A DNA stretch of 46,266 bases from a virus (IMGVR_UViG_2671180743_000008), one strand, 5' to 3'. Counted from the stretch's first letter, positions 11,784 through 43,112 are shown. Notes: generated by a model from the letters alone, not told the origin. Numbers and translations: made by a program.

Positions 11784-11787
11784 ACCA

Positions 11788-22577: not shown

Positions 22578-23155
22578 GCGCAGAACTCATGCGACTGCTG
22601 AGCAATATCATCCGCACCGGGATCATCTCTGAAGTTGATGAGGAATCCTGGTGCGTGCGCGTTCGCAGCGGCGAACTGGAAACAGGCTGGCTGCGCTGGA
22701 ACACCACGCGCGCGGGAGACTTCAACGTGTGGTTTCCGCCATCACCAGGCGAACAGGTGGCAATTGCCTGCATCGGCGGCAACCCGGAAACCGCCATGAT
22801 AATCGGCAGCCTGTGGAGTGATGCCATTCCGGCACCCGGCAAAAGCCTGAAAGAAATCGTGGTCAGCGCGCCGGACGGCGCGGTGTTCCGCTACGACGCG
22901 GACGCAGGCGCACTGAGCGCAAGCGGCATGAAAACGGCCACTTTGCAGGCATCCATCAGCGTGACACTGAACACGCCTGTCGTGGAATGCACAGACCTTC
23001 TGAGAACAGCGACGCTTGACGTCACAAAAGGGGGAACGATGAGCGGCAATATCACGCACAGCGGCGGCGATTTCACCTCAAACGGCATCACAGTGCATAC
23101 GCATAAGCACGGTGGCGTTAAAGGTGGCAGCGATTCGACAGGAGGCCCGCAGTGA
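22574..23155 (+). CDS. V: Baseplate assembly protein V (spike)
   Basis: 193 aa; start overlaps S; P2 gpV position. Confidence 0.85.
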   Translation: MSAELMRLLSNIIRTGIISEVDEESWCVRVRSGELETGWLRWNTTRAGDFNVWFPPSPGEQVAIACIGGNPETAMIIGSLWSDAIPAPGKSLKEIVVSAPDGAVFRYDADAGALSASGMKTATLQASISVTLNTPVVECTDLLRTATLDVTKGGTMSGNITHSGGDFTSNGITVHTHKHGGVKGGSDSTGGPQ

Positions 23156-23502
23156 CAACCCGCTACACAGGAATGAACCCGGACGGGACGGGAAACCTGA
23201 ACGATATGGCGCACCTGAAACAGTCAGTCAGGGACATCCTGACCACCCCGCTGGCAAGCCGGGTTATGCGACGGGAATATGGCAGCCTTGTGCCTGATTT
23301 GATTGACGAACCCATGAATAACACCACGCGTCTGCAATGCATGAGTGCTACCGTGATTGCACTGACACGATGGGAACCACGCATTGCCCTGAACGCCATC
23401 GACGTTGTCTGGAAGGCAGGAGGCCACGCCGGGGTGACGCTGTCGGGCACTGTCATGCAGACCATGCAGAATGTTGAATTAACCATCACGCTGAGGGAGT
23501 AA
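23152..23502 (+). CDS. W: Baseplate protein W (gp25-like)
   Basis: 116 aa; start overlaps V; P2 gpW position. Confidence 0.85.
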   Translation: MTTRYTGMNPDGTGNLNDMAHLKQSVRDILTTPLASRVMRREYGSLVPDLIDEPMNNTTRLQCMSATVIALTRWEPRIALNAIDVVWKAGGHAGVTLSGTVMQTMQNVELTITLRE

Positions 23503-23505
23503 ATC

Positions 23506-24402
23506 ATGCCTGCCGTTGACCTTTCCCAGTTACCGGAACCCGCCATCATCGCGGAGCCTGACTTTGAGGCAATTCTGGCTGACACAAAGGCCATGATGAT
23601 TGCAGCTTATCCCGCCGAACAGCGTGAAGTCGTCTCCGCCGCACTGGAACTGGAATCGGAACCCCTGAACGTTATCGCTCAAACCATGTCGTTTCGTGAA
23701 ATGCTGTTACGCCAGCGGGTCAATGAGGCCGCACGCGCCTGCATGTTGAGCCACAGCGCCGGAACAGACCTGGACAACCTCGCGGGCAATATGAACACAA
23801 AGCGCCTGGTTATCACTCCGGCAACGGATACCACCGACGTGGTGATGGAGAACGACACCTCGCTGAGACTGCGGGCGCAGCGGGCGTATGACGGCCTGAG
23901 TGTTGCAGGCCCGTCAGGCGCATACGAGTATTTTGCCCGCAGCGCCAGCGGTCTGGTGCGCGATGCGCGGGCCATCAGTCCGTCTCCGGCAAATGTGACG
24001 GTTTCCATCCTGTCCACTGAGGGCGACGGCACAGCAACGGAGGCGTTGCTTAATACCGTTCGCGCCGTTCTGAATGCAGAGGATACCCGCCCGGTGGCCG
24101 ACCGCCTGACCGTACAGAGTGCCAGAATCGTGACATGGCGGCTGAATGCAAAACTGTACTTTTACCCCGGTCCGGAATCCGAACCTATTCTGGCTGCGGC
24201 TGAATCGTCGTTCAGGAAGTGGCTGGCTGAGCAGGGGCTTATCGGTCAGGACGTGGCGTTGTCCGCCATTGCTGCCGCACTGCATGTGCACGGTGTGCAA
24301 CGCGTGGAGATAATCGAACCCACACAGAATATGGCCATCAGCGACATACAGGCGGCGCGCTGTGAGTCATTCACCATCAGCGAAGGTGGGCGTAATGAGT
24401 AA
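23506..24402 (+). CDS. J: Baseplate assembly protein J
   Basis: 298 aa; P2 gpJ size and position. Confidence 0.85.
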   Translation: MPAVDLSQLPEPAIIAEPDFEAILADTKAMMIAAYPAEQREVVSAALELESEPLNVIAQTMSFREMLLRQRVNEAARACMLSHSAGTDLDNLAGNMNTKRLVITPATDTTDVVMENDTSLRLRAQRAYDGLSVAGPSGAYEYFARSASGLVRDARAISPSPANVTVSILSTEGDGTATEALLNTVRAVLNAEDTRPVADRLTVQSARIVTWRLNAKLYFYPGPESEPILAAAESSFRKWLAEQGLIGQDVALSAIAAALHVHGVQRVEIIEPTQNMAISDIQAARCESFTISEGGRNE

Positions 24403-24925
24403 TTCACTGTTACCACCATCAGCCAGCAATTTCATGCGTTGTGCCGAAGCCGTCGGAACACGCATTACAGACATTCCGGCAGACCTCAACACGCTGTGGT
24501 CGCCGGACACCTGCCCGGTGCATCTGCTGCCTTATCTCGCCTGGGCGTTTTCCGTTGACCGCTGGGATCGCAACTGGCCGGAAGAGACAAAGCGACAGGT
24601 GATTCGTGATGCATGGCTGATACACCGACACAAAGGAACCATCAGCGCCCTGCGACGGGCCATTGAGCCGCTGGGATACCTCATTCGCGTGTCTGAGTGG
24701 TGGGAGTTCAACGGCGAACCCGGAACATTCAAGATTGATGTTGGCACGCTGGACAGTGGCGTGACGGAGGAAATGTATCTGGAAATGGAGCGGTTGATTG
24801 CTGATGCCCGCCCGGTCAGCCGCCACATGACAGGGCTGAATATCATTCAGGAGATTCAGGGAGATATTTTCGCGGCAGCAGCAACTTACGACGGTGAAGT
24901 CATTACCATTTATCCGGACGATTAA
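24395..24925 (+). CDS. I: Baseplate/tail protein I
   Basis: Start at MSNSLLPP (ATG at 24395, overlapping J); 176 aa, the size of P2 gpI. Confidence 0.85.
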   Translation: MSNSLLPPSASNFMRCAEAVGTRITDIPADLNTLWSPDTCPVHLLPYLAWAFSVDRWDRNWPEETKRQVIRDAWLIHRHKGTISALRRAIEPLGYLIRVSEWWEFNGEPGTFKIDVGTLDSGVTEEMYLEMERLIADARPVSRHMTGLNIIQEIQGDIFAAAATYDGEVITIYPDD

Positions 24926-24927
24926 GC

Positions 24928-26964
24928 ATGAGTACCACAACACGAAAATTTAAAACCATTATCACCGATACGGGTGCAAAAAAATTAGCGCAGGCAACCG
25001 CGCCAGATGGGAAACCTGTCCGCCTGACACATATGGCCGTGGGTGACGGCGGCGGTACTTTACCCACGCCAGACAGTAAGCAGACCCGTCTTGTGCATGA
25101 GGTGTGGCGACATACCGTTAATCGCGTCACCCTGGACGCAACACATCAGAACCACATTATTGCGGAGCTGGTTATTCCTCCTGAAACGGGCGGATTCTGG
25201 ATCCGGGAAATTGGTGTGTTTGATGAGCACGGCGATTTGATCGCGGTAGGCAATACTGCCGAAAGTTACAAGCCAACCGTTGCCGAAGGATCCGGACGTG
25301 CACAAACATTTCGCACCATTCTGACCGTATCCAGCACTGCCACTGTGGCGCTTACCGTGGATAACACCATGGTGATGGCCACAGTGAATTACGTGGATGA
25401 CAAACTGAAAGAGCATGAACAGTCACGACGTCACCCGGACGCCTCGCTGACCGCAAAAGGCCTTGTCCAGCTCAGCAACGCCACCAACAGCACGTCTGAA
25501 ACGCTGGCAGCGACACCAAAAGCCGTTAAGGCAGTAATGGATGAAACGAACAAGAAAGCCCCATTAAACAGCCCGGCACTGACCGGAACGCCAACAACAC
25601 CAACTGCGCGACAGGGAACGAATAATACCCAAATCGCAAGCACGGCTTTCGTTATGGCTGCGATTGCCGCACTTGTAGACTCTTCGCCTGATGCACTGAA
25701 CACACTGAACGAGCTGGCGGCGGCGCTGGGCAACGACCCGAATTTTGCGACCACCATGACTAACGCGCTTGCGGGTAAGCAACCGAAAGATGCCACTCTG
25801 ACGGCGCTGGCGGGGCTTGCTACTGCGGCAGACAGGTTTCCGTATTTTACGGGGAATGATGTCGCCAGCCTGGCAACCCTGACAAAAGTCGGGCGGGATA
25901 TTCTTGCGAAATCGACCGTTGCCGCCGTTATCGAATACCTCGGTTTACAGGAAACGGTAAACAAGGCTGGTAACGCCGTGCAAAAAAATGGCGATACGTT
26001 GTCCGGTGGACTTACTTTTGAAAACGACTCAATCCTTGCCTGGATTCGAAATACTGACTGGGCAAAGATTGGGTTTAAAAATAATTCGGATGCAGACACC
26101 GATTCCTACATGTGGTTTGAAACAGGCAACAACGGCAATGAATATTTCAAATGGAGACACCGCATCATTGGCACCCGGCCTAAAGACCTGATGAATCTTA
26201 AATGGAATGCTTTGTCTGTTCTTGTTGAAGCCCTTTTCAGCAGTGAAGTGAAAATATCGACAGTCAATGCACTGAGGATATTTAATTCATCTTTTGGTGC
26301 CATTTTTCGTCGTTCTGAAGAATGCCTGCATATCATCCCTACACGAGAGAATGAAGGGGAAAATGGTAATATAGGGCCACTACGCCCCTTTACGCTTAAT
26401 CTCAGAACTGGCCGGATAAGCATGGGGCATGGTCTTGATGTTACAGGGGATATATTTGCAAACCGTTTTGCAATTAACAGTAGTACCGGCATGTGGATTC
26501 ATATGCGTGACCAGAATGTTATTTTGGGACGTAATGCGGTATCCACTGATGGTGCTCAGGCTTTGCTCCGTCAGGACCATGCCGACCGCAAATTTATGAT
26601 TGGCGGTCTGGGAAATAAGCAATTTGGCATCTACATGATTAATAACTCAAGGACAGCCAATGGCACCGATGGTCAGGCGTACATGGATAATAACGGGAAC
26701 TGGCTTTGCGGCTCGCAAGTTATTCCCGGCAACTATGGCAATTTTGATTCCAGATATGTGAAAGATGTTCGACTTGGTTCACAGCAATATTATGGAGTGA
26801 ACAACTGGCAAACATGGAATTTTCAGTGCCCGTCAGGCTATGTACTGACGGGGATTAACGTACAGGATACCGGAAAAAACTCTGCCGATAATATTGCAGG
26901 CGTTCATTACAGGCCAGTGCAAAAGTATATAAATGGCACTTGGTATAATGTGGCGAGTATTTAA
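24928..26964 (+). CDS. H: Tail fibre protein H, copy 1 (constant N-terminus plus tip variant A)
   Basis: 678 aa; conserved fibre shaft motifs ([62 protein letters not shown]); contains a gix-like site at 25928..25953. Confidence 0.9.
25928..25953. other. gix/pix-like invertase crossover site inside H copy 1
   Basis: TTATCGAATACCTCGGTTTACAGGAA; differs at 2 of 26 positions from the reverse complement of the invertase-proximal sites; lies exactly where the constant and variable parts of H meet. Confidence 0.75.
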
Positions 26965-26965
26965 T

Positions 26966-27493
26966 ATGATGCACTTAAAGAACATAAAAGCAGGTAATGC
27001 TAAAACAGTGGAGCAGTATGAGTTAACAAAGAAGCACGGAGTCATCTGGCTTTACTCTGAGGACGGAAAAAACTGGTATGAGGAAGTGAAGAACTTTCAG
27101 CCAGACACAATAAAGATTGTTTACGATGCAAATAATATTATTGTCGCCATCACCAAAGATGCCTCCACGCTTAACCCTGAAGGTTATAGCGTCGTTGAGG
27201 TTCCTGATATTACAGCTAATCGTCGTGCTGATGATTCCGGTAAGTGGATGTTTAAGGACGGAGCTGTGGTTAAACGGATTTATACGGCTGACGAACAGCA
27301 ACAACAGGCCGAATCACAAAAGGCCGCATTGCTTTCCGAAGCTGAATCAGTCATCCAGCCGCTGGAACGCGCTGTCAGGCTGAATATGGCGACGGACGAG
27401 GAACGCACACGACTGGAAGCATGGGAACGCTACAGTGTTCTGGTCAGCCGTGTGGATACGGCAAAGCCAGAATGGCCACAAAAGCCTGAGTAA
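26966..27493 (+). CDS. G: Tail fibre assembly protein G/Tfa (partner of tip A)
   Basis: Start at [10 protein letters not shown], 2 nt after the H stop; 175 aa; C-terminal 60 residues identical to those of the tfa at 34453..34980. Confidence 0.85.
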
Positions 27494-27498
27494 AAATT

Positions 27499-27518
27499 AA
27501 GGCCCGATATCGGGCCTT
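27499..27518. terminator. Hairpin terminator after G
   Basis: AAGGCCCGATATCGGGCCTT perfect hairpin; a near-identical hairpin recurs at 34985..35004. Confidence 0.6.
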
Positions 27519-27525
27519 ACGCAGT

Positions 27526-28632
27526 GTGAACACCGTTGGCAAATCGGCATTCGTGGAGGCTGTCGGTCGGGCGAGCGATGATGCGGAAGGTTACTTGGAT
27601 TTTTTCAAAGGAGAGATAGGGAAAACACATCTGGCTCAGGAGCTGTGGACGCAGATTGATAACGGTCAGCTTGCGCCTGACCTGGCTGAAATCAGGACGT
27701 CCATTACGGATGTCAGCAATGAAATCACGCAGACCGTCAATAAGAAACTGGAAGACCAGAGTGCGGCAATTCAGCAGATACAGAAGGTTCAGGTTGATAC
27801 AAATAATAATCTGAACAGCATGTGGGCTGTGAAGCTGCAACAGATGAAGGACGGACGCCTTTATATTGCGGGTATCGGTGCCGGTATTGAGAATACGCCA
27901 GCAGGAATGCAGAGTCAGGTGCTGCTGGCGGCAGACAGGATTGCGATGATTAATCCTGCGAATGGCAACACAAAGCCGATGTTTGTTGGTCAGGGCGATC
28001 AGATATTCATGAACGACGTGTTCCTGAAACGCCTGACGGCTCCCACCATTACCAGCGGCGGTAATCCTCCGGCATTTTCCCTGACACCGGACGGAAAACT
28101 GACCGCTAAAAATGCAGATATCAGTGGCAGTGTGAATGCGAACGCCGGGACGCTCAACAATGTCACAATTAATGAGAACTGTCAGATTAAGGGGAAACTG
28201 TCAGCCAACCAGATTGAAGGCGATATAGTCAAAACAGTGGGTAAGGCTTTTCCGCGGGACTCCCGGGCACCGGAGCGGTGGCCATCAGGGACCATTACCG
28301 TCAGGATTTATGACGATCAGCCTTTTGACAGGCAAATTGTTATTCCGGCGGTGGCATTCAGCGGCGCTAAACATGAGCGGGAGAATAACGATATTTATTC
28401 GTCATGCCGCCTGATAGTACGGAAAAACGGTGCTGAAATTTATAACCGTACCGCGCTGGATAATACGCTGATTTACAGTGGTGTTATTGATATGCCAGCT
28501 GGTCGCGGCCACATGACGCTGGAGTTTTCGGTGTCAGCATGGCTGGTGAATAACTGGTATCCCACAGCAAGTATCAGCGATTTGCTGGTTGTGGTGATGA
28601 AGAAAGCCACCGCAGGCATCAGTATCAGCTGA
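27526..28632 (+). pseudogene. Lambdoid host-specificity protein J, C-terminal fragment
   Basis: Open frame starts abruptly right after the G terminator with no plausible start or RBS (first codon GTG); followed by lom, stf and tfa in the lambda order J-lom-stf-tfa; family call from memory of lambda J. Confidence 0.6.
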
Positions 28633-28699
28633 ATTTTATAACCCATATACGGGCGCCAGAAATGGCGCCTTTTTTATTGCAGAAAAGCGAGAGGTAATT

Positions 28700-29299
28700 A
28701 TGCGTAAAGTTTGTGCAGCCATTTTGTCCGCAGCCATTTGCCTGGCCGTATCCGGTGCGCCTGCATGGGCGTCTGAACATCAGTCCACACTGAGCGCGGG
28801 GTATCTTCATGCCCGTACGAACGCTCCCGGCAGCGATAATCTGAACGGGATTAACGTGAAATACCGTTATGAGTTTACGGACGCGCTGGGGCTGATTACG
28901 TCCTTCAGTTATGCCAATGCTGAGGATGAGCAAAAAACGCACTACAGCGATACCCGCTGGCATGAAGATTCCGTGCGTAACCGCTGGTTCAGCGTGATGG
29001 CGGGGCCGTCTGTACGCGTGAATGAATGGTTCAGCGCGTATGCGATGGTGGGTGTGGCTTACAGCCGTGTGTCGACTTTCTCCGGGGATTATCTCCGCGT
29101 AACTGACAACAAGGGGAAAACGCACGATGTGCTGACCGGAAGTGATGACGGTCGCCACAGCAACACGTCTCTGGCGTGGGGGGCTGGCGTGCAGTTTAAC
29201 CCGACCGAATCCGTGACCATTGACCTTGCTTATGAAGGTTCCGGTAGTGGTGACTGGCGAACGGATGCATTTATTGTTGGTATCGGATACCGTATCTGA
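28700..29299 (+). CDS. lom: Lom (Ail/PagC/Lom-family outer-membrane beta-barrel protein)
   Basis: 199 aa with signal peptide; INVKYRYEFTD, VMAGP, SAYAMVGVA and C-terminal AYEGSGSGDWRTDAFIVGIGYRI line up with lambda Lom. Confidence 0.9.
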   Translation: MRKVCAAILSAAICLAVSGAPAWASEHQSTLSAGYLHARTNAPGSDNLNGINVKYRYEFTDALGLITSFSYANAEDEQKTHYSDTRWHEDSVRNRWFSVMAGPSVRVNEWFSAYAMVGVAYSRVSTFSGDYLRVTDNKGKTHDVLTGSDDGRHSNTSLAWGAGVQFNPTESVTIDLAYEGSGSGDWRTDAFIVGIGYRI

Positions 29300-29404
29300 C
29301 AACAGACGCCGATTTATCTTCTGTAAATATTGTTATGATACGCAGGTTCATCCACCTTATGGGGTGAACTGCGTTTGAGGAAACGTAAAGTTACACTGTC
29401 CTGA

Positions 29405-29437
29405 AGCCCGTGGCGTCACTGCTGCGGGCTTTTTTTA
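29405..29437 (+). terminator. Rho-independent terminator after lom
   Basis: AGCCCG ... CGGGCT stem followed by TTTTTTT. Confidence 0.65.
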
Positions 29438-29450
29438 TTGGTGGAAAAGT

Positions 29451-32207
29451 ATGACAGTAAAAATTTCTGGCGTGCTTAAAGATGGCACAGGAAAACCAGT
29501 ACAGAACTGCACCATTGTGCTGAAGGCCAGACGAACCAGCAGCACGATGGTGGTGAACACGGTGGCCTCTGAAAATCCGGATGAAGCCGGACGTTACAGC
29601 ATGGATGTTGAGCATGGTCAGTACAGCGTCACCCTGCTGGTTGAAGGTTTTCCGCCTTCACATGCCGGGACCATTACCGTCTATGAAGGTTCCAGACCAG
29701 GTACGCTGAATGATTTTCTCGGTGCCATGACGGAGGATGATGTCCGACCGGAGGCACTGCGCCGCTTTGAGCAGATGGTGGAAGAGGTGTCACGTAACGC
29801 CTCCGCGGTTGCACAGAATACGGCAGCCGCGAAAAAATCAGCCAGCGAGGCGGCAACTCATGCAACCGATGCTGCAGCCTCAGCACGTGCCGCCAGCACG
29901 TCAGCCGGACAGGCCGCGTCGTCGGCTCAGTCAGCGTCTTCCAGCGCAGGAACGGCATCGACAAAGGCCCGTGAAGCAGCAAAAAGTGCTGCTGCAGAGT
30001 CATCAAAAAGCGCGGCAGCTACCAGCGCCAGTGCCGCGAAAACGTCAGAAACGAATGCCGCAGCATCACAAAAATCGGCAGCCACTTCTGCATCCACAGC
30101 GACCACGAAGGCGTCAGAAGCTGCCACCTCGGCACGGGGTGCGGCGGCCTCAAAAGAGGCAGCGAAATCTTCAGAAACGAATGCATCATCAAGTGCCAGT
30201 AGTGCAGCTTCCTCGGCAACGGCGGCAGGAAATTCCGCGAAGGCGGCAAAAACGTCCGAGACGAACGCTAAGTCTTCTGAAACAGCAGCGGGACAGAGCG
30301 CCTCAGCTGCGGCAGGTTCAAAAACAGCGGCTGCATTATCTGCCAGTGCCGCGTCAACAAGTGCCGGGCAGGCCTCAGCCAGTGCCACCGCCGCCGGAAA
30401 ATCGGCAGAAAGCGCCGCATCATCCGCTTCAACAGCCACAACGAAGGCTGGCAAAGCCACTGAGCAAGCCACTGCAGCAGCGAGGTCTGCTTCTGCAGCA
30501 AAAACCTCTGAAACAAATGCAAAGACTTCAGCAGACAATGCTGCTTCCTCTAAGGCAGCAGCCGCATCGTCAGCCAGTTCAGCGGCGTCATCGGCATCAT
30601 CTGCGTCTGCTTCAAAAGATGAGGCGACCAGACAAGCGTCAGCAGCGAAAGGTAGTGCCACGACAGCAACAACGAAAGCATCAGAGGCGGCAGGCAGTGC
30701 GACGGCTGCATCTCAGAGCAAAGTTGCTGCTGAATCCGCGGCAACGCGCGCCGAGACAGCAGCAAAACGGGCAGAGGATATTGCATCCGCCGTGGCGCTG
30801 GAGGATGCGAGCACGACGAAAAAGGGGATAGTACAGCTCAGCAGTGCGACCAACAGCACTTCCGAGTCACTGGCGGCAACGCCAAAAGCGGTTAAGGCGG
30901 TAATGGGTGAAACGAACAAGAAAGCGCCCTTAAATAGTCCTGCACTGACCGGAACGCCAACAACACCAACTGCGCGACAGGGAACGAATAATACCCAAAT
31001 CGCAAGCACGGCTTTCGTTATGGCTGCGATTGCCGCCCTTGTAGATTCGTCACCTGATGCACTGAACACGCTGAACGAGCTGGCTGCGGCGCTGGGCAAC
31101 GACCCGAATTTTGCGACCACCATGACTAACGCGCTTGCGGGTAAGCAACCGAAAGATGCCACCCTGACGGCGCTGGCCGGACTTACTACTGCGGCAGGCA
31201 AGTTTCCGTATTTTACGGGGAATGATGTCGCCAGCCTGGCAACCCTGACAAAAGTCGGGCGGGATATTCTTGCGAAATCGACCGTTGCTGCCGTTATCGA
31301 ATACCTCGGTTTACAGGAAACGGTAAACAAGGCTGGTAACGCCGTTCAGCGTTCCGGCGATAAAATGACCGGAGAACTGAAAATTGGCACGGTGAATGCG
31401 CTGCGAATTTTCAATGATACCTTCGGTCTAATTTTCCGTCGTTCAGAAGATTTTCTTCATTTCATTCCGACGGCTGAAGGACAAGGCGAAAACGGTAATA
31501 TCGGCCCATTAAGGCCATTCGCTATAAATCTGAGAACAGGTGCTATATCTGTCAGCCACGGGGCCAAAATTAAAGGAGGTCTAGCTATTGGAGCTACTGA
31601 TAACGCACTGGGTGAAAACTCCATTGTTCTGGGAGATAACGACACCGGATTTAGGCAAGATGGAGATGGTATTATTAGCTTCTATTCAAATGGTTCGCGC
31701 ATCGGACATATTGATGAGTTAGGATTACATCTTTATAAAGATATTGAATCTAATGGCAGCAATTTTAGATTAAAAAGTAATTACCGCCACCACATTACAT
31801 TCGCCAACGAAGACGGAAGAATTCGTATGTTTTTGTGGAAAGATAACGGTGGTGATGGTGTTCATATTAATAACGGTTCAGATGGTGGTGGTGATTTCAT
31901 TTTTAAAACAGATGGGGGATTTGCGCTGGGAAGTGGTGCGCAAGTTGCGTCTAGTGGCGATATTTATGGTTCAGTGTGGGAAAACAACTGGTTAAGCACA
32001 TGGCTGCATAATCATGTCGTTCGGGATATTCGTCTTGGCAGCATTGAATATAAAAACGTATGGCGCGACTACGGCTTTGGCGATGCGTCAGGTTATGTTT
32101 TAACAGCCGCAATTAACAGCAATGCGGATGATATTGTCGACACTGTTGCCAGAAGGCCAATTCAGAAATTGATTGGGGGAATATGGTACAACGTGGGGAG
32201 TGTTTAA
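29451..32207 (+). CDS. stf: Lambdoid side tail fibre protein Stf (tip variant B)
   Basis: 918 aa; long Ala/Ser/Thr-rich repetitive shaft; C-terminal half homologous to H but not identical to copy 1 in the shaft (GIVQLSSATNSTSES versus [15 protein letters not shown]); contains a gix-like site. Confidence 0.85.
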   Translation: MTVKISGVLKDGTGKPVQNCTIVLKARRTSSTMVVNTVASENPDEAGRYSMDVEHGQYSVTLLVEGFPPSHAGTITVYEGSRPGTLNDFLGAMTEDDVRPEALRRFEQMVEEVSRNASAVAQNTAAAKKSASEAATHATDAAASARAASTSAGQAASSAQSASSSAGTASTKAREAAKSAAAESSKSAAATSASAAKTSETNAAASQKSAATSASTATTKASEAATSARGAAASKEAAKSSETNASSSASSAASSATAAGNSAKAAKTSETNAKSSETAAGQSASAAAGSKTAAALSASAASTSAGQASASATAAGKSAESAASSASTATTKAGKATEQATAAARSASAAKTSETNAKTSADNAASSKAAAASSASSAASSASSASASKDEATRQASAAKGSATTATTKASEAAGSATAASQSKVAAESAATRAETAAKRAEDIASAVALEDASTTKKGIVQLSSATNSTSESLAATPKAVKAVMGETNKKAPLNSPALTGTPTTPTARQGTNNTQIASTAFVMAAIAALVDSSPDALNTLNELAAALGNDPNFATTMTNALAGKQPKDATLTALAGLTTAAGKFPYFTGNDVASLATLTKVGRDILAKSTVAAVIEYLGLQETVNKAGNAVQRSGDKMTGELKIGTVNALRIFNDTFGLIFRRSEDFLHFIPTAEGQGENGNIGPLRPFAINLRTGAISVSHGAKIKGGLAIGATDNALGENSIVLGDNDTGFRQDGDGIISFYSNGSRIGHIDELGLHLYKDIESNGSNFRLKSNYRHHITFANEDGRIRMFLWKDNGGDGVHINNGSDGGGDFIFKTDGGFALGSGAQVASSGDIYGSVWENNWLSTWLHNHVVRDIRLGSIEYKNVWRDYGFGDASGYVLTAAINSNADDIVDTVARRPIQKLIGGIWYNVGSV
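31294..31319. other. gix/pix-like crossover site inside stf
   Basis: TTATCGAATACCTCGGTTTACAGGAA, same sequence and orientation as the site in H. Confidence 0.75.
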
Positions 32208-32208
32208 G

Positions 32209-32535
32209 ATGATGCACCTGAAAAATATTAAGGCCGGGAATCCGAAAACACCGGAACAATACCAGCTAACTAAAAAACCGCTGGGATACCTCATTCGCGT
32301 GTCTGAGTGGTGGGAGTTCAACGGCGAACCCGGAACATTCAAGATTGATGTTGGCACGCTGGACAGTGGCGTGACGGAGGAAATGTATCTGGAAATGGAG
32401 CGGTTGATTGCTGATGCCCGCCCGGTCAGCCGCCACATGACAGGGCTGAATATCATTCAGGAGATTCAGGGAGATATTTTCGCGGCAGCAGCAACTTACG
32501 ACGGTGAAGTCATTACCATTTATCCGGACGATTAA
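32209..32535 (+). pseudogene. Chimeric ORF: tfa N-terminus (23 codons) fused in frame to the C-terminal part of gene I
   Basis: [23 protein letters not shown] then PLGYLIRVSEWWEF...ITIYPDD, which is identical to the end of gene I at about 24665..24925; junction at about 32277/32278. Confidence 0.75.
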
Positions 32536-32537
32536 GC

Positions 32538-34451
32538 ATGAGTACCACAACACGAAAATTTAAAACCATTATCACCGATACGGGTGCAAAAAAATTAGCG
32601 CAGGCAACCGCGCCAGATGGGAAACCTGTCCGCCTGACACATATGGCCGTGGGTGACGGCGGCGGTACTTTACCCACGCCAGACAGTAAGCAGACCCGTC
32701 TTGTGCATGAGGTGTGGCGACATACCGTTAATCGCGTCACCCTGGACGCAACACATCAGAACCACATTATTGCGGAGCTGGTTATTCCTCCTGAAACGGG
32801 CGGATTCTGGATCCGGGAAATTGGTGTGTTTGATGAGCACGGCGATTTGATCGCGGTAGGCAATACTGCCGAAAGTTACAAGCCAACCGTTGCCGAAGGA
32901 TCCGGACGTGCACAAACATTTCGCACCATTCTGACCGTATCCAGCACTGCCACTGTGGCGCTTACCGTGGATAACACCATGGTGATGGCCACAGTGAATT
33001 ACGTGGATGACAAACTGAAAGAGCATGAACAGTCACGACGTCACCCGGACGCCTCGCTGACCGCAAAAGGCCTTGTCCAGCTCAGCAACGCCACCAACAG
33101 CACGTCTGAAACGCTGGCAGCGACACCAAAAGCCGTTAAGGCAGTAATGGATGAAACGAACAAGAAAGCCCCATTAAACAGCCCGGCACTGACCGGAACG
33201 CCAACAACACCAACTGCGCGACAGGGAACGAATAATACCCAAATCGCAAGCACGGCTTTCGTTATGGCTGCGATTGCCGCACTTGTAGACTCTTCGCCTG
33301 ATGCACTGAACACACTGAACGAGCTGGCGGCGGCGCTGGGCAACGACCCGAATTTTGCGACCACCATGACTAACGCGCTTGCGGGTAAGCAACCGAAAGA
33401 TGCCACTCTGACGGCGCTGGCGGGGCTTGCTACTGCGGCAGACAGGTTTCCGTATTTTACGGGGAATGATGTCGCCAGCCTGGCAACCCTGACAAAAGTC
33501 GGGCGGGATATTCTTGCGAAATCGACCGTTGCCGCCGTTATCGAATACCTCGGTTTACAGGAAACGGTAAACAAGGCTGGTAACGCCGTTCAGCGTTCCG
33601 GCGATAAAATGACCGGAGAACTGAAAATTGGCACGGTGAATGCGCTGCGAATTTTCAATGATACCTTCGGTCTAATTTTCCGTCGTTCAGAAGATTTTCT
33701 TCATTTCATTCCGACGGCTGAAGGACAAGGCGAAAACGGTAATATCGGCCCATTAAGGCCATTCGCTATAAATCTGAGAACAGGTGCTATATCTGTCAGC
33801 CACGGGGCCAAAATTAAAGGAGGTCTAGCTATTGGAGCTACTGATAACGCACTGGGTGAAAACTCCATTGTTCTGGGAGATAACGACACCGGATTTAGGC
33901 AAGATGGAGATGGTATTATTAGCTTCTATTCAAATGGTTCGCGCATCGGACATATTGATGAGTTAGGATTACATCTTTATAAAGATATTGAATCTAATGG
34001 CAGCAATTTTAGATTAAAAAGTAATTACCGCCACCACATTACATTCGCCAACGAAGACGGAAGAATTCGTATGTTTTTGTGGAAAGATAACGGTGGTGAT
34101 GGTGTTCATATTAATAACGGTTCAGATGGTGGTGGTGATTTCATTTTTAAAACAGATGGGGGATTTGCGCTGGGAAGTGGTGCGCAAGTTGCGTCTAGTG
34201 GCGATATTTATGGTTCAGTGTGGGAAAACAACTGGTTAAGCACATGGCTGCATAATCATGTCGTTCGGGATATTCGTCTTGGCAGCATTGAATATAAAAA
34301 CGTATGGCGCGACTACGGCTTTGGCGATGCGTCAGGTTATGTTTTAACAGCCGCAATTAACAGCAATGCGGATGATATTGTCGACACTGTTGCCAGAAGG
34401 CCAATTCAGAAATTGATTGGGGGAATATGGTACAACGTGGGGAGTGTTTAA
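32538..34451 (+). CDS. H: Tail fibre protein H, copy 2 (recombinant: H copy 1 N-terminus plus stf tip B)
   Basis: 637 aa; identical to copy 1 up to [11 protein letters not shown], then identical to the stf C-terminus ([13 protein letters not shown]...WYNVGSV); the switch coincides with the gix-like site. Confidence 0.85.
33538..33563. other. gix/pix-like crossover site inside H copy 2
   Basis: TTATCGAATACCTCGGTTTACAGGAA, same orientation as the other two intragenic sites. Confidence 0.75.
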
Positions 34452-34452
34452 G

Positions 34453-34980
34453 ATGATGCACCTGAAAAATATTAAGGCCGGGAATCCGAAAACACCGGAA
34501 CAATACCAGCTAACTAAAAAAGCGGGCGTGGTATGGCTCTTTTGCGAAGATGGCAAAAACTGGTATGAGGAACAAAAGAATTTTCAGCCAGACACCATAA
34601 AAATTGCTTACGATGAGAACAACATCATCGTTGCTGTCAGTAAAGACGTTTCAACTATTAATCCTGAAGGGCTAAGCATAGTTGAAGTTCCTGATATTAC
34701 GGCAAATCGTCACGCAGACAATAACGGAAAATGGATGTTTCTGGATGGTAAAGTAGTAAAGAGGGAATATACAGAACAGGAACTGCAACAACAGGCCGAA
34801 TCACAAAAGGCCGCATTGCTTTCCGAAGCTGAATCAGTCATCCAGCCGCTGGAACGCGCTGTCAGGCTGAATATGGCGACGGACGAGGAACGCACACGAC
34901 TGGAAGCATGGGAACGCTACAGTGTTCTGGTCAGCCGTGTGGATACGGCAAATCCTGAATGGCCACAAAAGCCTGAATAA
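34453..34980 (+). CDS. tfa: Tail fibre assembly protein Tfa (partner of tip B)
   Basis: Start at [23 protein letters not shown]; 175 aa; follows H copy 2 with a 1-nt gap. Confidence 0.85.
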
Positions 34981-34984
34981 AAAT

Positions 34985-35004
34985 TAAGGCCCGATAGCGG
35001 GCCT
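34985..35004. terminator. Bidirectional hairpin terminator between convergent tfa genes
   Basis: AAGGCCCGATAGCGGGCCTT lying between the stops of the plus-strand tfa (34980) and the minus-strand tfa (35009). Confidence 0.6.
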
Positions 35005-35008
35005 TCTC

Positions 35009-35542
35009 TCATTCTGGTTGTTCGGGAAACGTTACTGGCAGGCTGGAGGTGTCTGTGGATTCGACCTTCTGCGCATAGAGCATCCACTCGGTTAATTTTT
35101 GTTTATTCTCATCGGAAATGATGCCCAGCTGTAGCTGAGAGTCCCACAGCTGGGTTTTATCCCTGACGAGCTGCAGCAGGCTCTGCTTTTCATTTTCCGC
35201 TTGTTGCCTTTGCTCTTCCTCGGTATAAGTTCGCTTTATCACCGCACCATCTTTGAACATCCAGTTGCCCGAAATATCAGCCCGGCGATTTGCTGTAATA
35301 TCAGGCAACTCAACGACACTTAAACCTTCTGGATTAATTGCTGATACATCCTTGTCTATAGCAATAATTATTCCCTCAACTGTGTAAGCCAGTTTTATTG
35401 TATCCTCCTGAAAGTTTTTTAATTCCTCATGCCAATTTTTTCCATCTTCGGACCATAACCAGATAACATCAAAATTCTTTGTTAGCTGGTATTGTTCAAC
35501 GGTTTTTGGATTACCTGCGACAATGTTTTTTAAATGCTGCAT
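35009..35542 (-). CDS. Tail fibre assembly protein Tfa (inverted orientation, partner of tip C)
   Basis: 177 aa; [23 protein letters not shown]-terminus typical of Tfa; opposite strand to the expressed fibre genes, as in Mu G / e14 P invertible segments. Confidence 0.8.
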
Positions 35543-35694
35543 GATTATACCTGCGATACGTTATACCATGTTCCGTTAATTAACTTTTGTATTGGTCTGA
35601 ATACTGCCGGATCATCACCATCGACTTCACCGATAATACCAAGCCCCGTGATTACATGGCCTGATTTTTCATACATCACGCCTTTCTTCATGGT

Positions 35695-36306
35695 CTAAAC
35701 AACTCGTGTGCCAAGTCTGACATCTCTCACATAGCGGGAATCAAAGTTACCGTAATCCGAGGGATTAACACGTCCCGTAATATTTATGGTTTTATTACTT
35801 TGAATGCTTCCGGAGACAAAGCGCATAACATGGACGTTATTAGCATAAACATCCAGATTACCATCGCCTTTTTGTTTAAAGCCCGTGTCATTATCACCCA
35901 ATACAATCGAATTACCGCCAAGAGCACTGGATGTTCCGATACCCAGTGCACCATTCAGTTGACCACCAGATAACGGCAGTGCACCAACATCTCCTGCTGA
36001 AGGTTTTCTGGTGGTGTAAAATTCGGACCAGTCGGCTTCAAAACCATAACCATCACGGGCTGAACGATAAAAAATACCGCCATTTTTATAATTAATCCGA
36101 AACTGAGCTGCAGGACAACTTCCTTCTCCCATATAAAAATGAATAATTAACGTTGATGCACCACTAATAGTTGCGTTATAGGCTCCGCTACTCCAGTTCC
36201 ATCCAACTGCTTTATCATTCGCAACGGTGCTTCCTGTTTTCCCTAAGGCAAACGCACCAACATGACTTGCTTTTAATGTGATATCGGAGGAACCATCAAA
36301 AGCCAC
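35695..36306 (-). pseudogene. Alternative tail-fibre tip segment (variant C), promoterless and probably frameshifted
   Basis: Fibre C-terminal domain motifs ([26 protein letters not shown]); the frame ends prematurely at ...DVRLGTRVV*, while the expected fibre end (...[17 protein letters not shown]) is encoded in another frame at about 35543..35690. Confidence 0.65.
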
Positions 36307-36453
36307 ATTGCTTATTTTCCTGGCAGTTTTTAATTTTGCAGCTGTAGAAGCATTGCCGGATAGTTCACCAGAAAGGCCACCGCTGAATGTTTGTCGATTA
36401 GTCCAGGTATTCGCTGTACTGAGTAACGGTATTTTCTCCCCGCTTGTGCCGAG

Positions 36454-36479
36454 TTCTCGTAAACCGAGGTTTTAGATAA
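36454..36479. other. gix/pix-like crossover site (inverted orientation), next to the truncated invertase
   Basis: TTCTCGTAAACCGAGGTTTTAGATAA, close to the Mu gix sequence as I recall it (TTCCTGTAAACCGAGGTTTTGGATAA); inverted relative to the three intragenic sites. Confidence 0.75.
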
Positions 36480-36533
36480 TGGCGGTTTCTGGCCTGCATG
36501 GCATGATTTGCGCTTTTGGACGGGAGATTCAGC

Positions 36534-36716
36534 GTGCTGATTGGCTATGTAAGGGTATCAACAAATGACCAGAATACAGACCTGCAACGAAACGCTCTTG
36601 TTTGTGCAGGATATGAACAAATATTTGAAGATAAATTAAGCGGAACAAGGACAGGCCGACCTGGATTAAAACGTGCTTTAAAGCGCCTTCAAAAAGGTGA
36701 CGCACTGGTTGTCTGA
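36534..36716 (+). pseudogene. Truncated Gin/Pin-family serine DNA invertase (N-terminal about 60 codons)
   Basis: GTG start then VLIGYVRVSTNDQNTDLQRNALVCAGYEQIFEDKLSG...KGDALVV*; versus the intact copy a TGG to TGA change gives a premature stop, after which the sequence diverges. Confidence 0.8.
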
Positions 36717-36914
36717 AAACTGGACTGACTGGGTCACTGTATGCGGCATCTTGTCGTGCTGGTGGTGGAAGCCTAGAAAAAGTATCGGGTGTTGCTGAAC
36801 CGTGTTGATACATCAACTGCACCTGATATTGAGTGGCCTACGAACCCTGTCAGGGAGTAATCATTGGGATTATGCCGCAGCACGTCTTAAGCAAGAACGT
36901 GCTGCGGTTGGATG

Positions 36915-37583
36915 CTATTTTTTCCCTGAAGCGGAAAACATTACTACAGTACCTTGAACCCTGGTTTTAACATTCTCGAAATGCTCTGAGAGTATATGTG
37001 TTAAGCCTTCTTCGGAATCTTTTGTGTTTGAAAAGATGCCTTTCTGATTGTAAATGCGCATCAGTTTTTGACCGAAGCTATTGTGCACAACTCCATCGCC
37101 AAGAATTGTGGCTCCGTATAGAGTTCCATCAATTAATTTTTGTTTATTCTCGTCGGAAATAATGCCCAGCCGTAGCTGTGAGTCCCATAGCTGGGTTTTA
37201 TCCCTGACGAGCTGTAGCAGGCTTTGCTTTTCATTTTCCGCTTGTTGCCTCTGCTCTTCCCCGGTATAAGTTCGCTTTATCACTACGCCATCTTTGAACA
37301 TCCATTTACCTGAAATATCAGCCCGGCGATTTGCTGTAATATCAGGAACCTCAACGACGCTTGCGCCTTCCGGATTAATTGCTGAAACATCCTTTTCAAT
37401 ACAAATAATAACGCCGTTGTGGTCATAGACCATTTTCAACGTATCAGGCTGAAAGTTCTTTTGTTCCTCATACCAGTTTTTCCCATCCTCTGTATAAAGC
37501 CATTTGATGTTAAATTGTTTCGTTAGCTGGTATTGCTCTTTTGTTTCAGGATTACCAGCAGAAATGTTTTTTAAGTGCATCAT
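36915..37583 (-). CDS. Tail fibre assembly protein Tfa (inverted orientation, partner of tip D), atypical C-terminus
   Basis: 222 aa; the first 160 or so residues are Tfa-like ([22 protein letters not shown]...); the last 45 or so are unrelated to other Tfa ends and run into the deletion scar next to the truncated invertase. Confidence 0.7.
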
Positions 37584-37585
37584 CG

Positions 37586-38329
37586 TTAAATACTCCCCGC
37601 GTTATACCACGTCCCATTAATGCAATACTGAATTGGCCTTGCCTGAGTTGTATCAATTAGTTCATCTCTGTTTGAGTTAACGGAACCGGTAACAACATAA
37701 CCTGACCTGTCAGACCATCCGGGACCATTCCATGTCTGAACAGATAACAGACCACCAAGGCGAATACCTGTAATAAACCTTGAGTTACATTCTGCCTGCG
37801 TATATGCACCAACATCTCCCGCAGAGGGTTTGCGGGTTGTGGTGTAAAACTCTGACCAGTCAGCTTCAAAGCCATAACCATCACGCGCTGAACGATAAAA
37901 AATACCGCCGTTCCTGTAATTCACGCGGAACTGTACAGCAGGGCAGCTCCCCGTATTCATATTGAAGTGGAGGATTAATGTCGATGCGCCACCAATGTTT
38001 GCGTTATAGACCCCGCTATTCCAGTTCCAGCCAACAGCTTTATCATTTCCGACAGTGCTTCCTGTTTGCCCTAAAGCAAATGCAGGTTGTTGATTTTTCG
38101 TGTTGTAGTCTCGTCGCCAGCCAGGAGCGTAAGCATCACCATGATTAATATAAGTGAATTGAGCGTTAGTAATTCCGCCACCGCTGGACGTGCTCGGCGT
38201 GGTAACGCGTATGGTCATTGCGCCGCGAGTGCCAATAACTTCCACCACAGCACCTGCAAGACAAATATTTCCGCAACCTGTATCTGTAATGACCTTATTA
38301 TTTGCATAAGCCCATGAGCCTTTGCACAT
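37586..38329 (-). CDS. Alternative tail-fibre tip segment (variant D), promoterless
   Basis: 247 aa listed; fibre tip ending ...[17 protein letters not shown] immediately upstream of its tfa; the open frame probably continues up to the crossover site at about 38530. Confidence 0.7.
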
Positions 38330-38530
38330 CCAGTAAGGATGGTTAAATGCTCCCTGACTCTCCAGCCACGAAATAAATTGCGCGGTTGTCCAGACCTGAC
38401 TATCGCCACCAATATTCAGCCATGAGCTATATGCGCGGCAGGCACCAATATTTTTGGTGAAGGTATCTTTCCCCGGAATATCTGCGCCGTTCTGGTTTTT
38501 CTGTAATGCGCCAGAAGCCTGATTTACCGT

Positions 38531-38556
38531 TTCCTGTAAACCGAGGTTTTAGATAA
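38531..38556. other. gix/pix-like crossover site (inverted orientation), next to the intact invertase
   Basis: TTCCTGTAAACCGAGGTTTTAGATAA; the 55 bp that follow match the leader of the truncated invertase copy. Confidence 0.8.
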
Positions 38557-38610
38557 TGGCCGTTTCCGGCCTGCATGGCATGATTTGCGCTTTTGGACGG
38601 GAGATTCAGC

Positions 38611-39198
38611 GTGCTGATTGGCTATGTAAGGGTATCAACAAATGACCAGAATACAGACCTGCAACGAAACGCTCTTGTTTGTGCAGGATGTGAACAAATA
38701 TTTGAAGATAAATTAAGCGGGACAAAGACAGACCGACCGGGATTAAAACGCGCTTTAAAGCGCCTTCAAAAAGGTGACACGCTGGTTGTCTGGAAACTGG
38801 ATCGCCTCGGGCGAAGCATGAAACATCTGATTTCTCTCGTCGGGGAACTACGGGAGCGAGGAATTAATTTTCGCAGTCTGACCGACAGCATAGATACATC
38901 TTCTCCAATGGGGCGTTTTTTCTTCCACGTGATGGGTGCCCTGGCTGAAATGGAACGTGAATTAATTGTTGAACGTACACTGGCCGGACTGGCGGCAGCA
39001 CGCGCACGGGGGCGCACAGGCGGACGTCGACCGAAGCTGACAAAAGAACAGCATGAGCAAATAGCAAGGCTGATCAAAAACGGGCACGACAGAAAACAAC
39101 TGGCAATAATTTACGGCATTGGTATATCGACGATTTATCGTTACCACCCCGCAGGAGAATCAATCGGAACAATAGAGAAGAGTCAGGAAACAAAATAA
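38611..39198 (+). CDS. pin: Gin/Pin/Hin-family serine DNA invertase
   Basis: GTG start; VLIGYVRVSTNDQNTDLQRNALVCAGCEQIFEDKLSGTKTDRPGLKRALKRLQKGDTLVVWKLDRLGRS with the catalytic Ser in the YVRVST motif; C-terminal HTH; closely resembles Mu Gin / e14 Pin. Confidence 0.9.
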   Translation: MLIGYVRVSTNDQNTDLQRNALVCAGCEQIFEDKLSGTKTDRPGLKRALKRLQKGDTLVVWKLDRLGRSMKHLISLVGELRERGINFRSLTDSIDTSSPMGRFFFHVMGALAEMERELIVERTLAGLAAARARGRTGGRRPKLTKEQHEQIARLIKNGHDRKQLAIIYGIGISTIYRYHPAGESIGTIEKSQETK

Positions 39199-39226
39199 CC
39201 GCTAATCTGACCATTAGCGGTTTTTG
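39198..39226. terminator. Bidirectional terminator between pin and U
   Basis: ACCGCTAAT ctgacc ATTAGCGGT hairpin followed by TTTTT on the plus strand and an A-rich run on the other side. Confidence 0.7.
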
Positions 39227-39233
39227 TGTTAAA

Positions 39234-39728
39234 TCAGAACAACCCTTTAACTGAACTGGCCGCGCTGTTAAGGGATGATGTTACCTTATCTTTGAAGCCG
39301 GACAGCATATCGCTGAACGATGAGGATTGCAGGCGCTCCCGCAAATCCTCATCACAGCGTTCAAGAGTCAGTGAAAATTCTATCTTTTTCGCCTTACCGT
39401 AGCGATCAAACTCGGAGCGGGTCGTATTCGTTTCGGTCAGGACATACATGCCGTAAATCTGCCCGACGCCATCAATCAGAGGCCAGGGTCGTCCTGTATA
39501 CGCCTGCGTGGTCAGCAGCGACAGCGACACTTCGCCACCTGTAATTTCAGGATAAAGCACACCAGAAAGAACGATGCGCTCATCACCTGCACCGATATAC
39601 TGCCAGCTTGCCGAACGGTTAACGCGTTCATTTTTCACATGCCGCCAGCTTTTGTTTTGCTGTAACTGCTGATGCGGCAATGTACGCAGCTCAAAAACAA
39701 ACATGCCGTAGATCATCATCATGGCCAT
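39234..39728 (-). CDS. U: Tail protein U
   Basis: 164 aa; N-terminus (IYGMFVFELRTLPHQQLQQNKSWRH ... LSGVLYPEITGG) resembles P2 gpU. Confidence 0.8.
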   Translation of the reverse strand: MAMMMIYGMFVFELRTLPHQQLQQNKSWRHVKNERVNRSASWQYIGAGDERIVLSGVLYPEITGGEVSLSLLTTQAYTGRPWPLIDGVGQIYGMYVLTETNTTRSEFDRYGKAKKIEFSLTLERCDEDLRERLQSSSFSDMLSGFKDKVTSSLNSAASSVKGLF

Positions 39729-39734
39729 GACTCC

Positions 39735-43058: not shown

Positions 43059-43112
43059 CAGGAAACTCCTTTCAGTCAGAGGCGACGCACTGCGCCGCCT
43101 GCATATTACTTA

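Follow-up and report, generated by a model that had tools for sequence, protein, structure and literature searches.

We report that the apparent array of five gix-like crossover sites in the 46,266-nucleotide viral sequence analysed here (the window) is very probably a scaffold artefact, in which two ordinary two-site tail-fibre switches from separate S. sonnei loci have been joined. A reading of the window from sequence alone had proposed a single nested, shufflon-like system with five sites on one continuous molecule. Neither claim survived comparison with deposited genomes: the array exists only across scaffold gaps, and closed chromosomes split its pieces into two prophages.

The sites were found at the positions and in the orientations originally claimed. 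Searching with the Mu gix site and allowing up to three mismatches returned exactly five 26-bp matches in the window (chance expectation in shuffled sequence, 0.00), all with the central dinucleotide GA:

25928..25953, minus strand: gix1, left crossover of the P88-like segment, in frame within H1; 2 mismatches to Mu gix
31294..31319, minus strand: gix2, left crossover of the lambdoid segment, in frame within stf
33538..33563, minus strand: gix3, within a duplicated I'-H block
36454..36479, plus strand: gix4, right crossover of the lambdoid segment; 3 mismatches to Mu gix
38531..38556, plus strand: gix5, right crossover of the P88-like segment; 1 mismatch to Mu gix

Paired per locus as in closed genomes, gix1 with gix5 and gix2 with gix4 form inverted pairs of Din type, 26 bp long with the same central GA. 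Each of the three left sites lies, as had been noted, at a shaft/tip boundary inside a fibre gene, and each is in frame. Both right sites do lie upstream of an invertase gene, but one of the two genes is a mere remnant:

38611..39198, plus strand: pin, intact pin/gin-like DNA invertase gene, 195 aa, GTG start, Pfam Resolvase and HTH_7
36534..36731, plus strand: pin', invertase remnant with a stop after 65 codons, annotated as an incomplete recombinase in E. coli NCTC86

The window is the deposited contig CXDL01000021.1 (46266 bp) in the same coordinates, and the sole differences between them are bases that the deposit gives as N and the window as A:

27519: scaffold gap, N in the deposit
32277: scaffold gap, N in the deposit
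37131..37132: scaffold gap, NN in the deposit

Because the deposit has N there, the region 25928..38556 spans three scaffold gaps, and these are precisely the joins that build the five-site array. The window does not represent a single sequenced molecule; it is a scaffold built from four short-read contigs, c1 (1..27518), c2 (27520..32276), c3 (32278..37130) and c4 (37133..46266), and appears to interleave two unrelated prophage regions that have gix sites, the 5' ends of invertase genes and tfa genes in common. All three joins fall mid-gene, the first in the middle of J, the second leading from about codon 23 of a tfa gene into the middle of gene I and the third from a methyltransferase into another tfa gene. 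Among 5426 complete E. coli genomes, no record reached at least 80% query coverage for the c1-c2 junction, the c2-c3 junction or contig c3 itself. Seven other drafts encoding the same proteins (L005, L007, L008, L013, L015, L020 and L021) have conflicting gene orders, and the odd junctions coincide with Ns in all six of those scanned for Ns. A model derived from self-BLAST and comparison with E. coli FDAARGOS_943, comprising a real 9.6-kb lambdoid insertion, a 7610-bp tandem duplication and a direct-gix deletion generating a second H gene, was dropped because all three non-homologous junctions are Ns. The c3-c4 join also yields a chimeric ORF (36915..37583, 222 aa) combining the C-terminal 72 aa of the methyltransferase with the N-terminal ~150 aa of Tfa; we considered whether it might be a naturally occurring Tfa with an extended C-terminus and rejected this, as it is a methyltransferase/Tfa chimera over the NN gap. 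The true methyltransferase also has 222 aa, a coincidence, the DNA identity of the non-shared parts being 24%. Elsewhere, the apparent four-tfa array of E. coli ST131 strain 4993 consists of two tfa genes repeated as a palindrome, probably an effect of mixed orientations on assembly.

In closed genomes, the outer contigs c1 and c4 belong together at a P2-type prophage, with the following features:

24928..26964, plus strand: H1 tail fibre, 678 aa, Pfam Phage_tail_fib and Phage_fiber_2; shaft to ~25940, then tip A
26966..27493, plus strand: tfaA, assembly protein for tip A, Pfam Caudo_TAP
37133..37583, minus strand: tfaE, 5' 451 nt of a 534-nt assembly gene of the silent P88-like cassette, matching tfa' of FDAARGOS_943
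37586..38543, minus strand: tip E cassette, complete and open in frame from gix5

A terminator hairpin follows tfaA and ends at 27518, the position up to which identity to FDAARGOS_943 is 99.9%. In closed CP026836.1, window positions 14928..27518 are followed by 63 bp, by window positions 37112..38549 and then by pin and the tail genes; FDAARGOS_943 has the same c1-to-c4 arrangement. Closed (>1 Mb) records contain the exact H1 protein in 18 blocks; the order in the contexts shown is always I-H-tfa-...-pin, with tfa' and tip' present unless deleted or IS-interrupted. The closed contexts shown for the exact Pin protein always hold one H...pin segment and no lambdoid insert, mostly in the intact two-cassette form, some being IS-interrupted. 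Contigs c1 and c4 (system 1) very probably form the usual invertible fibre segment of a P88-like P2-type prophage in the btuC/ihfA interval, ordered as H shaft, gix1, tip A and tfaA, the opposed tfaE' and tip E', gix5 and pin. Pin would synapse the two inverted 26-bp sites and flip the ~2.9-kb segment, swapping tip A/tfaA for tip E/tfaE on a constant shaft; the H shaft with tip E makes a 656-aa fibre, a form present in draft L007 and closed CP032523.1.

The inner contigs, in turn, match the end of a lambdoid prophage:

27526..28632 (block 27520..29299), plus strand: C-terminal part of lambdoid J, Pfam Ig_GpJ_C and Phage_Tail_Tip, at the start of c2
28700..29299, plus strand: lom, Pfam Ail_Lom
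29451..32207, plus strand: stf side tail fibre, 918 aa, Pfam phage_tail_N; N-terminal domain, shaft and tip C
34453..34980, plus strand: tfaC, assembly protein for tip C, Pfam Caudo_TAP, directly after stf in closed genomes
35009..35542, minus strand: tfaD, assembly protein of the silent lambdoid cassette, Pfam Caudo_TAP
35545..36466, minus strand: tip D cassette, in frame from gix4, amber-interrupted
36915..37130, minus strand: class I SAM methyltransferase, 3' 216 nt, at the end of c3

In S. sonnei 53G the J'-lom block is continuous with a full set of lambdoid tail genes, and positions 8070..15436 of its record (HE616528.1) correspond to window positions 27520..32277 running directly into 33590..37130, the last 216 nt (36915..37130) aligning to the 53G methyltransferase; the rest of that gene, IS1 and trpA/B/C come next. 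The methyltransferase end is 99.5% identical and contiguous in NCTC86 and 410 E. coli genomes, NCTC86 carries the same lambdoid end near ompW/yciE/trpA, and the exact stf protein adjoins trpA in closed chromosomes. Both switches can be placed on one closed S. sonnei chromosome, UGZB01000001.1 (4.959 Mb), in which the stf locus (6-29 kb) and the pin locus (4.415-4.428 Mb) are on the same strand, ~0.54 Mb apart. The amber codon of tip D (TAG, 35695..35697) is shared with 53G and is CAG/Gln in NCTC86; with one tip reduced to an amber pseudogene and with a split J, the lambdoid prophage is defective in S. sonnei. Contig c2 together with c3 from 33590 onwards (system 2) very probably represents the right end of this defective prophage adjoining the trp operon, in the order stf shaft, gix2, tip C and tfaC, the opposed tfaD' and amber-bearing tip D', gix4, the truncated pin' and the methyltransferase.

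What remains of the array is gix3 and the second H gene, the latter having been taken as consistent with a deletion between direct sites:

32278..33589, plus strand: duplicated block, gene I 3' 258 nt and H shaft, 100% identical to 24668..25979
32538..34451, plus strand: 'H2', a mosaic 637-aa chimeric ORF of H shaft and tip C

The deletion account is not supported: this gene is a perfect mosaic of sequence found elsewhere in the scaffold, beginning directly after a gap; beyond gix3, 33534..34521 is 100% identical to 31290..32277. Its exact 637-aa protein was found only in four draft contigs of 20-50 kb and in no closed record, as against 228 blocks for the parental H1 and 272 for stf. All four drafts have a second identical H shaft in the stretch examined, beginning right after an N in three of them, and in sister drafts the second copy begins at other points, always after Ns. 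Draft L008, with seemingly two distinct P2-type modules, was considered as support for a real second H and rejected: its two H copies are to be taken as identical, since they differ by only three mismatches, all at the gix junction. H and stf share exactly a 56-nt stretch around gix. The most likely origin of gix3 and the second H gene is assembly itself: the system 1 H shaft would have been written twice, through repeat resolution or gap filling, and the assembly path may have crossed the 56-nt identity around gix into tip C.

Some observations nonetheless speak against an artefact. The closed genomes belong to different isolates of this species, and a single-N gap can also mark true adjacency, presumably with read-pair support for each join. 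Moreover, c3 has no Ns between the H shaft and tip C, gix3 included, and the same chimera recurs in four independent drafts; if the k-mer of the assembler exceeded the 56-nt shared stretch, real molecules joining H shaft to tip C would be needed. It is thus conceivable, if unlikely, that the scaffold order is wrong while c3, running from H shaft through gix3 and tip C to pin' and the methyltransferase, represents genuine molecules in the culture, produced when the H site was recombined with the stf site, either by Pin or by RecA through the shaft ends (518 nt, 93% identical), leaving four parental sites plus a hybrid junction in the cell. A crossover within the 56-nt identity, which contains the 26-bp site, would agree with this, as would the tip C-like tips carried by P2-type H genes of certain closed E. 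coli genomes (97.5% across the junction) and the ability of invertases of this family to act in trans on other prophages, PinQ inverting the P segment of e14 (PMC12529663). The H and stf sites are, however, direct repeats ~0.54 Mb apart in the closed S. sonnei chromosome, so that for the c3 junction to exist, 0.54 Mb would have to be excised as a circle or duplicated in tandem. Directly repeated sites are disfavoured as substrates by invertases of the Gin type, the reciprocal stf-tipA junction was not seen, and both the lack of the chimera in closed records and the repeated H shaft in all four drafts point to assembly. That Pin joins gix sites at this distance, with a transient circle or tandem duplication in part of the culture, is a decidedly doubtful proposition. 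Were it true, a myovirus fibre shaft would gain a siphovirus side-fibre tip, and the four chromosomal sites would form a dispersed, cell-wide network of multi-site tip exchange. Very improbable indeed is a correct scaffold, that is, a true five-site composite resembling the Min multiple inversion system in which lambdoid J'-lom-stf...pin' and a partial I-H duplication were inserted into the P88-like invertible segment: it has in its favour the order chosen by the scaffolder, six shaft-by-cassette inversions that are all in frame, an intact invertase and two putative enhancer-bearing 5' regions, but every junction that it requires is an N placed mid-gene and found in no closed genome, and the sister drafts are mutually incompatible in order.

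The intactness asserted for the invertase at 38611..39198 was borne out by its full ORF. Pin is 86% identical to Mu Gin, matches the Gin structure 4m6f at E=4e-101 (best PDB hits 4m6f and 3uj3) and has the hallmarks of small serine recombinases, with a Resolvase domain (1.3e-50), a C-terminal HTH_7 and a YVRVST motif. Over their first ~110 nt pin and pin' do not differ from Mu gin, and over the following ~90 nt they are nearly identical to it. The recombinational enhancer of Mu reportedly lies within gin, and by analogy Pin would use a Fis-bound enhancer located in the 5' portion of its own gene.

Simulated inversions gave in-frame fusions for all combinations of shaft and cassette, in agreement with the proposal that the minus-strand tip-plus-tfa cassettes have no 5' ends of their own and are fused in frame on inversion. 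Of the two cassettes first delimited, 35009..36306 is real, with the amber codon in its tip; 36915..38329 is in part an artefact, its ORF crossing the NN gap in which the 3' end of tfaE is lost. Both orientations of the alternative 3' tips, with their cognate assembly genes, are represented among isolates and in closed genomes. For system 1, H joined to tip A is found in the window, in L021 and in CP026836.1, and H joined to tip E with tip A' beside pin in L007, L015 and closed CP032523.1; L013 also has tip A' beside pin. For system 2, draft L015 contains stf-tipC plus the flipped junctions tipD'-gix-rc(stf) and rc(tipC)-gix-pin', and NCTC86 has the stf-tipD orientation. Lacking its own invertase, system 2 has to rely on an enzyme acting in trans, for which the Pin of system 1 is the simplest candidate, and the orientation polymorphism despite a truncated invertase leads us to infer such inversion of the lambdoid segment by Pin. 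The occurrence of this segment in both orientations agrees with an invertase supplied in trans by a P2-type prophage in the same cell, which is a mildly useful observation.

Both underlying switches are classical two-site systems of the Mu G or e14 P type and already known; host-range switches of this kind are textbook knowledge and are found across hundreds of genomes of E. coli and Shigella. Our results rather serve as a caution, namely that short-read scaffolders go astray where segments are invertible, gix/pin sequences duplicated and tfa genes conserved, and that once Ns are swapped for bases the joins mimic exotic rearrangements such as nested cassettes, 'recombinant' genes and chimeric ORFs.

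Compared with known systems, the window resembles the R64 shufflon only in the shuffling of cassettes at the 3' end of an adhesin gene. That shufflon uses the tyrosine recombinase Rci and sfx sites at the 3' end of pilV, whereas the window encodes a serine resolvase/invertase whose targets are phage tail fibre genes. Min of p15B is reportedly a Din-family serine invertase acting on sites in both orientations within one contiguous 3.5-kb region, and its overlapping invertible segments carry fibre-tip cassettes. It is the system that the sequence-only reading most resembled, with at least three sites in both orientations on one contiguous segment; unlike in Min, contiguity is refuted here by the N gaps and by two loci ~0.54 Mb apart, each with two sites. 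System 2 is 96-99.5% identical to lambdoid stf segments with a truncated pin (NCTC86, EC31 and 53G) and shares with these and with the e14 P/Pin system the order J-lom-stf(N-term)-gix, tip and tfa opposed to tfa' and tip', gix, recombinase remnant, tfa fragment and methyltransferase; the S. sonnei version differs in its amber tip, its split J and its probable dependence on an invertase encoded elsewhere. PinQ of the Qin prophage, through its action on e14, offers a precedent for the serine invertase of one prophage flipping the fibre segment of another (PMC12529663), as may happen here. System 1 closely parallels Escherichia phage P88 (Xuanwuvirus, Peduoviridae), in which I-H-tfa-(tfa' tip')-invertase-U-T-E-FII-FI are arranged in the same way on the opposite strand. 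Identity of c1 is 95-96% to P88 and 99.9% to the FDAARGOS_943 prophage, and once the scaffold insert is removed there is no difference of substance from P88. Finally, the logic already recognized in the Mu G, P1 C and e14 P segments, with gix-type sites, holds for both switches. As in the Mu G segment (Gin with gixL/gixR; also the P1/P7 C segment with Cin), the invertase is Gin-like and its gene starts as gin does, the sites lie one to three bases from Mu gix with the same central GA, a site sits in frame at the shaft/tip boundary, the tip-plus-tfa cassettes are opposed and the invertase gene lies just outside the right site; in contrast to Mu, the system here resides in a P2-type (Xuanwuvirus/P88-like) prophage, with P2 H in place of Mu S as the constant part and with different tips.

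A search of the whole window with the Mu gix query (up to three mismatches) returned exactly five sites, three on the minus strand (gix1 to gix3, at 25928, 31294 and 33538) and two on the plus strand (gix4 and gix5, at 36454 and 38531), against 0.00 expected by chance in shuffled sequence. All five share an asymmetric central GA. The five gix-like sites of the sequence-only reading were therefore correctly placed and oriented, but their arrangement into a nested, shufflon-like array does not hold. It seems very probable that the scaffold interleaves two ordinary two-site fibre switches from separate prophages. The ORF map of the region is as follows:

24928..26964, plus strand: H
26966..27493, plus strand: tfa (tfaA)
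27526..32207, plus strand: C-terminal part of lambdoid J, lom and stf
32538..34451, plus strand: second H-like ORF (H2)
34453..34980, plus strand: tfa (tfaC)
35009..36466, minus strand: tfa and tip (tfaD, tip D)
36534..36731, plus strand: invertase remnant (pin')
36915..38543, minus strand: 222-aa ORF and tip (tip E)
38611..39198, plus strand: intact invertase gene (pin)
3' of 39198, last in the map, minus strand: P2-type tail genes

The window is the complete contig CXDL01000021.1 (46,266 bp) of draft assembly GCA_001253115.1. Compared base by base, window and deposit differ at only four positions (27519, 32277, 37131 and 37132), each an N in the deposit and an A in the window, and all three non-homologous junctions coincide exactly with these positions:

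27519: junction 1, terminator of tfaA to mid-J
32277: junction 2, tfa (codon ~23) to mid-I
37131-37132: junction 3, methyltransferase 3' end to tfaE

The 222-aa ORF, a methyltransferase/Tfa chimera, is a product of the third join. The replacement of N by A was silent and hid the joins from a reader of the sequence alone. The scaffold junctions between the first and second and the second and third of the four contigs (c1-c2 and c2-c3) were absent from 5426 complete E. coli genomes, where no record covered 80% or more of either junction query or of c3, and seven drafts with the same proteins (L005, L007, L008, L013, L015, L020 and L021) show various, mutually incompatible gene orders. Odd junctions fell on Ns in all six drafts scanned for Ns, and the extra H-shaft block starts immediately after an N in three of the four drafts carrying H2. 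In draft L020 (FTTI01000078.1) the tip D/methyltransferase region appears twice in one scaffold, together with an ipaH-like (LRR plus NEL) gene, which adds to the evidence that S. sonnei drafts routinely mis-scaffold this repeat family.

Closed chromosomes hold two separate loci. The exact 918-aa stf occurs in S. sonnei 53G (HE616528.1) and four other closed records, all five in the order lambdoid tail genes, split J, lom, stf, tfa, tfa'(-), tip'(-), invertase remnant, methyltransferase, tfa fragment, IS1, trpA/B/C, with tip'(-) in two pieces (203 + 48 aa). Positions 8070..15436 of 53G equal window 27520..32277 joined directly to 33590..37130, the I/H block being absent, and E. coli NCTC86 has the same lambdoid end (99.5%) adjoining ompW/yciE/trpA. 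The exact 678-aa H1 (the H of 24928..26964) and the exact Pin protein are found in many closed records, and every closed context shown for them has a single H ... pin segment without lambdoid insert, mostly an intact I-H-tfa-tfa'(-)-tip'(-)-pin-U-T and in a few cases broken by IS elements or deletions; in CP026836.1, 63 bp lie between the equivalents of 27518 and 37112. Both loci are present in UGZB01000001.1 (closed, 4.96 Mb), on the same strand and about 0.54 Mb apart, in agreement with the trp-to-btuC distance expected from the window flanks nlpC-btuDEC. The five-site nested array, joined only across N positions, is thus a scaffolding product, and the multi-site feature is not real.

The second H gene and gix3 are most likely artefacts as well, the assembler or gap filler having put the H shaft into the sequence a second time. 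Self-BLAST showed that 32278..33589 (the end of gene I and the H shaft) is identical to 24668..25979 and that 33534..34521 (gix and tip plus 70 nt from the start of a tfa gene) is identical to 31290..32277; H2 is therefore a mosaic, matching base for base two sequences that the window contains elsewhere. Around gix, H and stf are identical over 56 bases only, and 36459..36724 repeats the gix5/pin 5' region at 96% identity. That part of the culture instead carries H2 as a true recombinant of H and stf is improbable: c3 crosses gix3 without an N and the identical chimera recurs in four drafts, but the H copy is perfect and begins at a gap, the second copies in sister drafts begin at differing points, and the chimera is missing from closed genomes although the parental H and stf proteins are abundant there. 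Moreover, 0.54 Mb separates the H and stf sites, which are in direct repeat, so that such a junction would imply either a circle excised from the chromosome or a large duplication, direct-repeat events that Gin-type enzymes disfavour. Our first reading, a real insertion with later duplication and deletion, came from self-BLAST and from a closely related prophage in E. coli FDAARGOS_943 (99.9% over 12660..27518), in which 63 bp of canonical segment stand in place of window 27519..37111, and was dropped because all three non-homologous junctions are Ns.

The first of the two switches (c1 plus c4, 1..27518 and 37133..46266) would belong to a P88-like P2-type prophage and read H shaft - gix1 - [tip A, tfaA / tfaE', tip E'] - gix5 - pin. 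The invertase that had been taken as intact from sequence is borne out: Pin has 195 aa, Resolvase plus HTH_7 domains and 86% identity to Mu Gin, and its best PDB matches are Gin structures. Simulated gix1/gix5 inversion yields an in-frame 656-aa fibre with tip E complete. A 656-aa H with tip A' beside pin is found in draft L007 and closed CP032523.1, and the opposite orientation, with tip A on H, in the window, L021 and CP026836.1; judged from these sequences, the presence of both orientations indicates that the switch has flipped within this lineage. In several closed S. sonnei chromosomes (L023, L026, L031, L034) an IS with a 385-aa IS3-family-type transposase lies inside the pin-proximal gix, with the equivalent of 38546..38549 (in gix5) duplicated on each side, an insertion expected to inactivate the right crossover site and so lock the segment. 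These copies occur in both orientations (678-aa H in L023 and L034, 656-aa H in L031); gix5 of the window's isolate has no IS.

Between its replication and portal genes (10824..12099) the same prophage has ParM-like and plasmid-partition-like genes, as called from annotation of the near-identical FDAARGOS_943 and O26 RM8426 regions; such genes are not usual in an integrated P2-type prophage. A sister prophage in E. coli O26 RM8426 (L004), at the same btuC-ihfA site and with the same integrase region, has neither invertible segment nor invertase, and a serine O-acetyltransferase gene comes after its H-tfa. Within this prophage family, then, the fibre-switch module can itself be exchanged as a cassette. 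In closed E. coli ST131 strain 4993 (L011, NZ_CP103557.1 3401962-3404932) the order is H-tfa1-tfa2'(-)-tip fragment(-)-tfa2(+)-tfa1'(-)-tip'(-)-recombinase, each of two tfa proteins appearing twice in mirror arrangement. This pattern suggests a palindrome misassembled from an invertible segment of mixed orientation, or else a genuine inverted duplication.

The second switch (c2, 27520..32276, plus c3 from 33590) would read lambdoid stf shaft - gix2 - [tip C, tfaC / tfaD', tip D'] - gix4 - pin'. A stop ends pin' after 65 codons, and an amber at 35695..35697 (TAG vs CAG, Gln, in NCTC86) cuts the silent lambdoid tip D 48 codons short of its natural end; the same amber in 53G makes the mutation old within the lineage. 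At closed S. sonnei loci (L012/L014/L017) J is split upstream of the equivalent of 27520 into ORFs of 547 and 513 aa, with IS1 copies bordering the prophage end beside trpA, so the lambdoid element with gix2 and gix4 is a defective remnant. The orientation in NCTC86 is stf-tipD, and draft L015 holds stf-tipC plus the flipped junctions tipD'-gix-rc(stf) and rc(tipC)-gix-pin'. The simplest explanation for both orientations despite a truncated pin' may be inversion in trans by the Pin of the P88-like prophage, for which PinQ acting on the e14 P segment is a precedent (PMC12529663).

Each real locus has the testable features of the Gin/Pin/Cin/Hin systems, namely the enzyme, the cassette logic and inverted 26-bp sites whose cores match. 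Over its first ~110 nt, pin is identical to gin. In Mu this 5' region bears the Fis-dependent enhancer, and by this likeness the same role is putative in pin. Min-type multiple inversion requires at least three sites on one contiguous segment, which neither locus has, and a strict shufflon (Rci, sfx, pilV) is excluded. The sites, cassettes and invertase are real and ordinary, of a kind already known.
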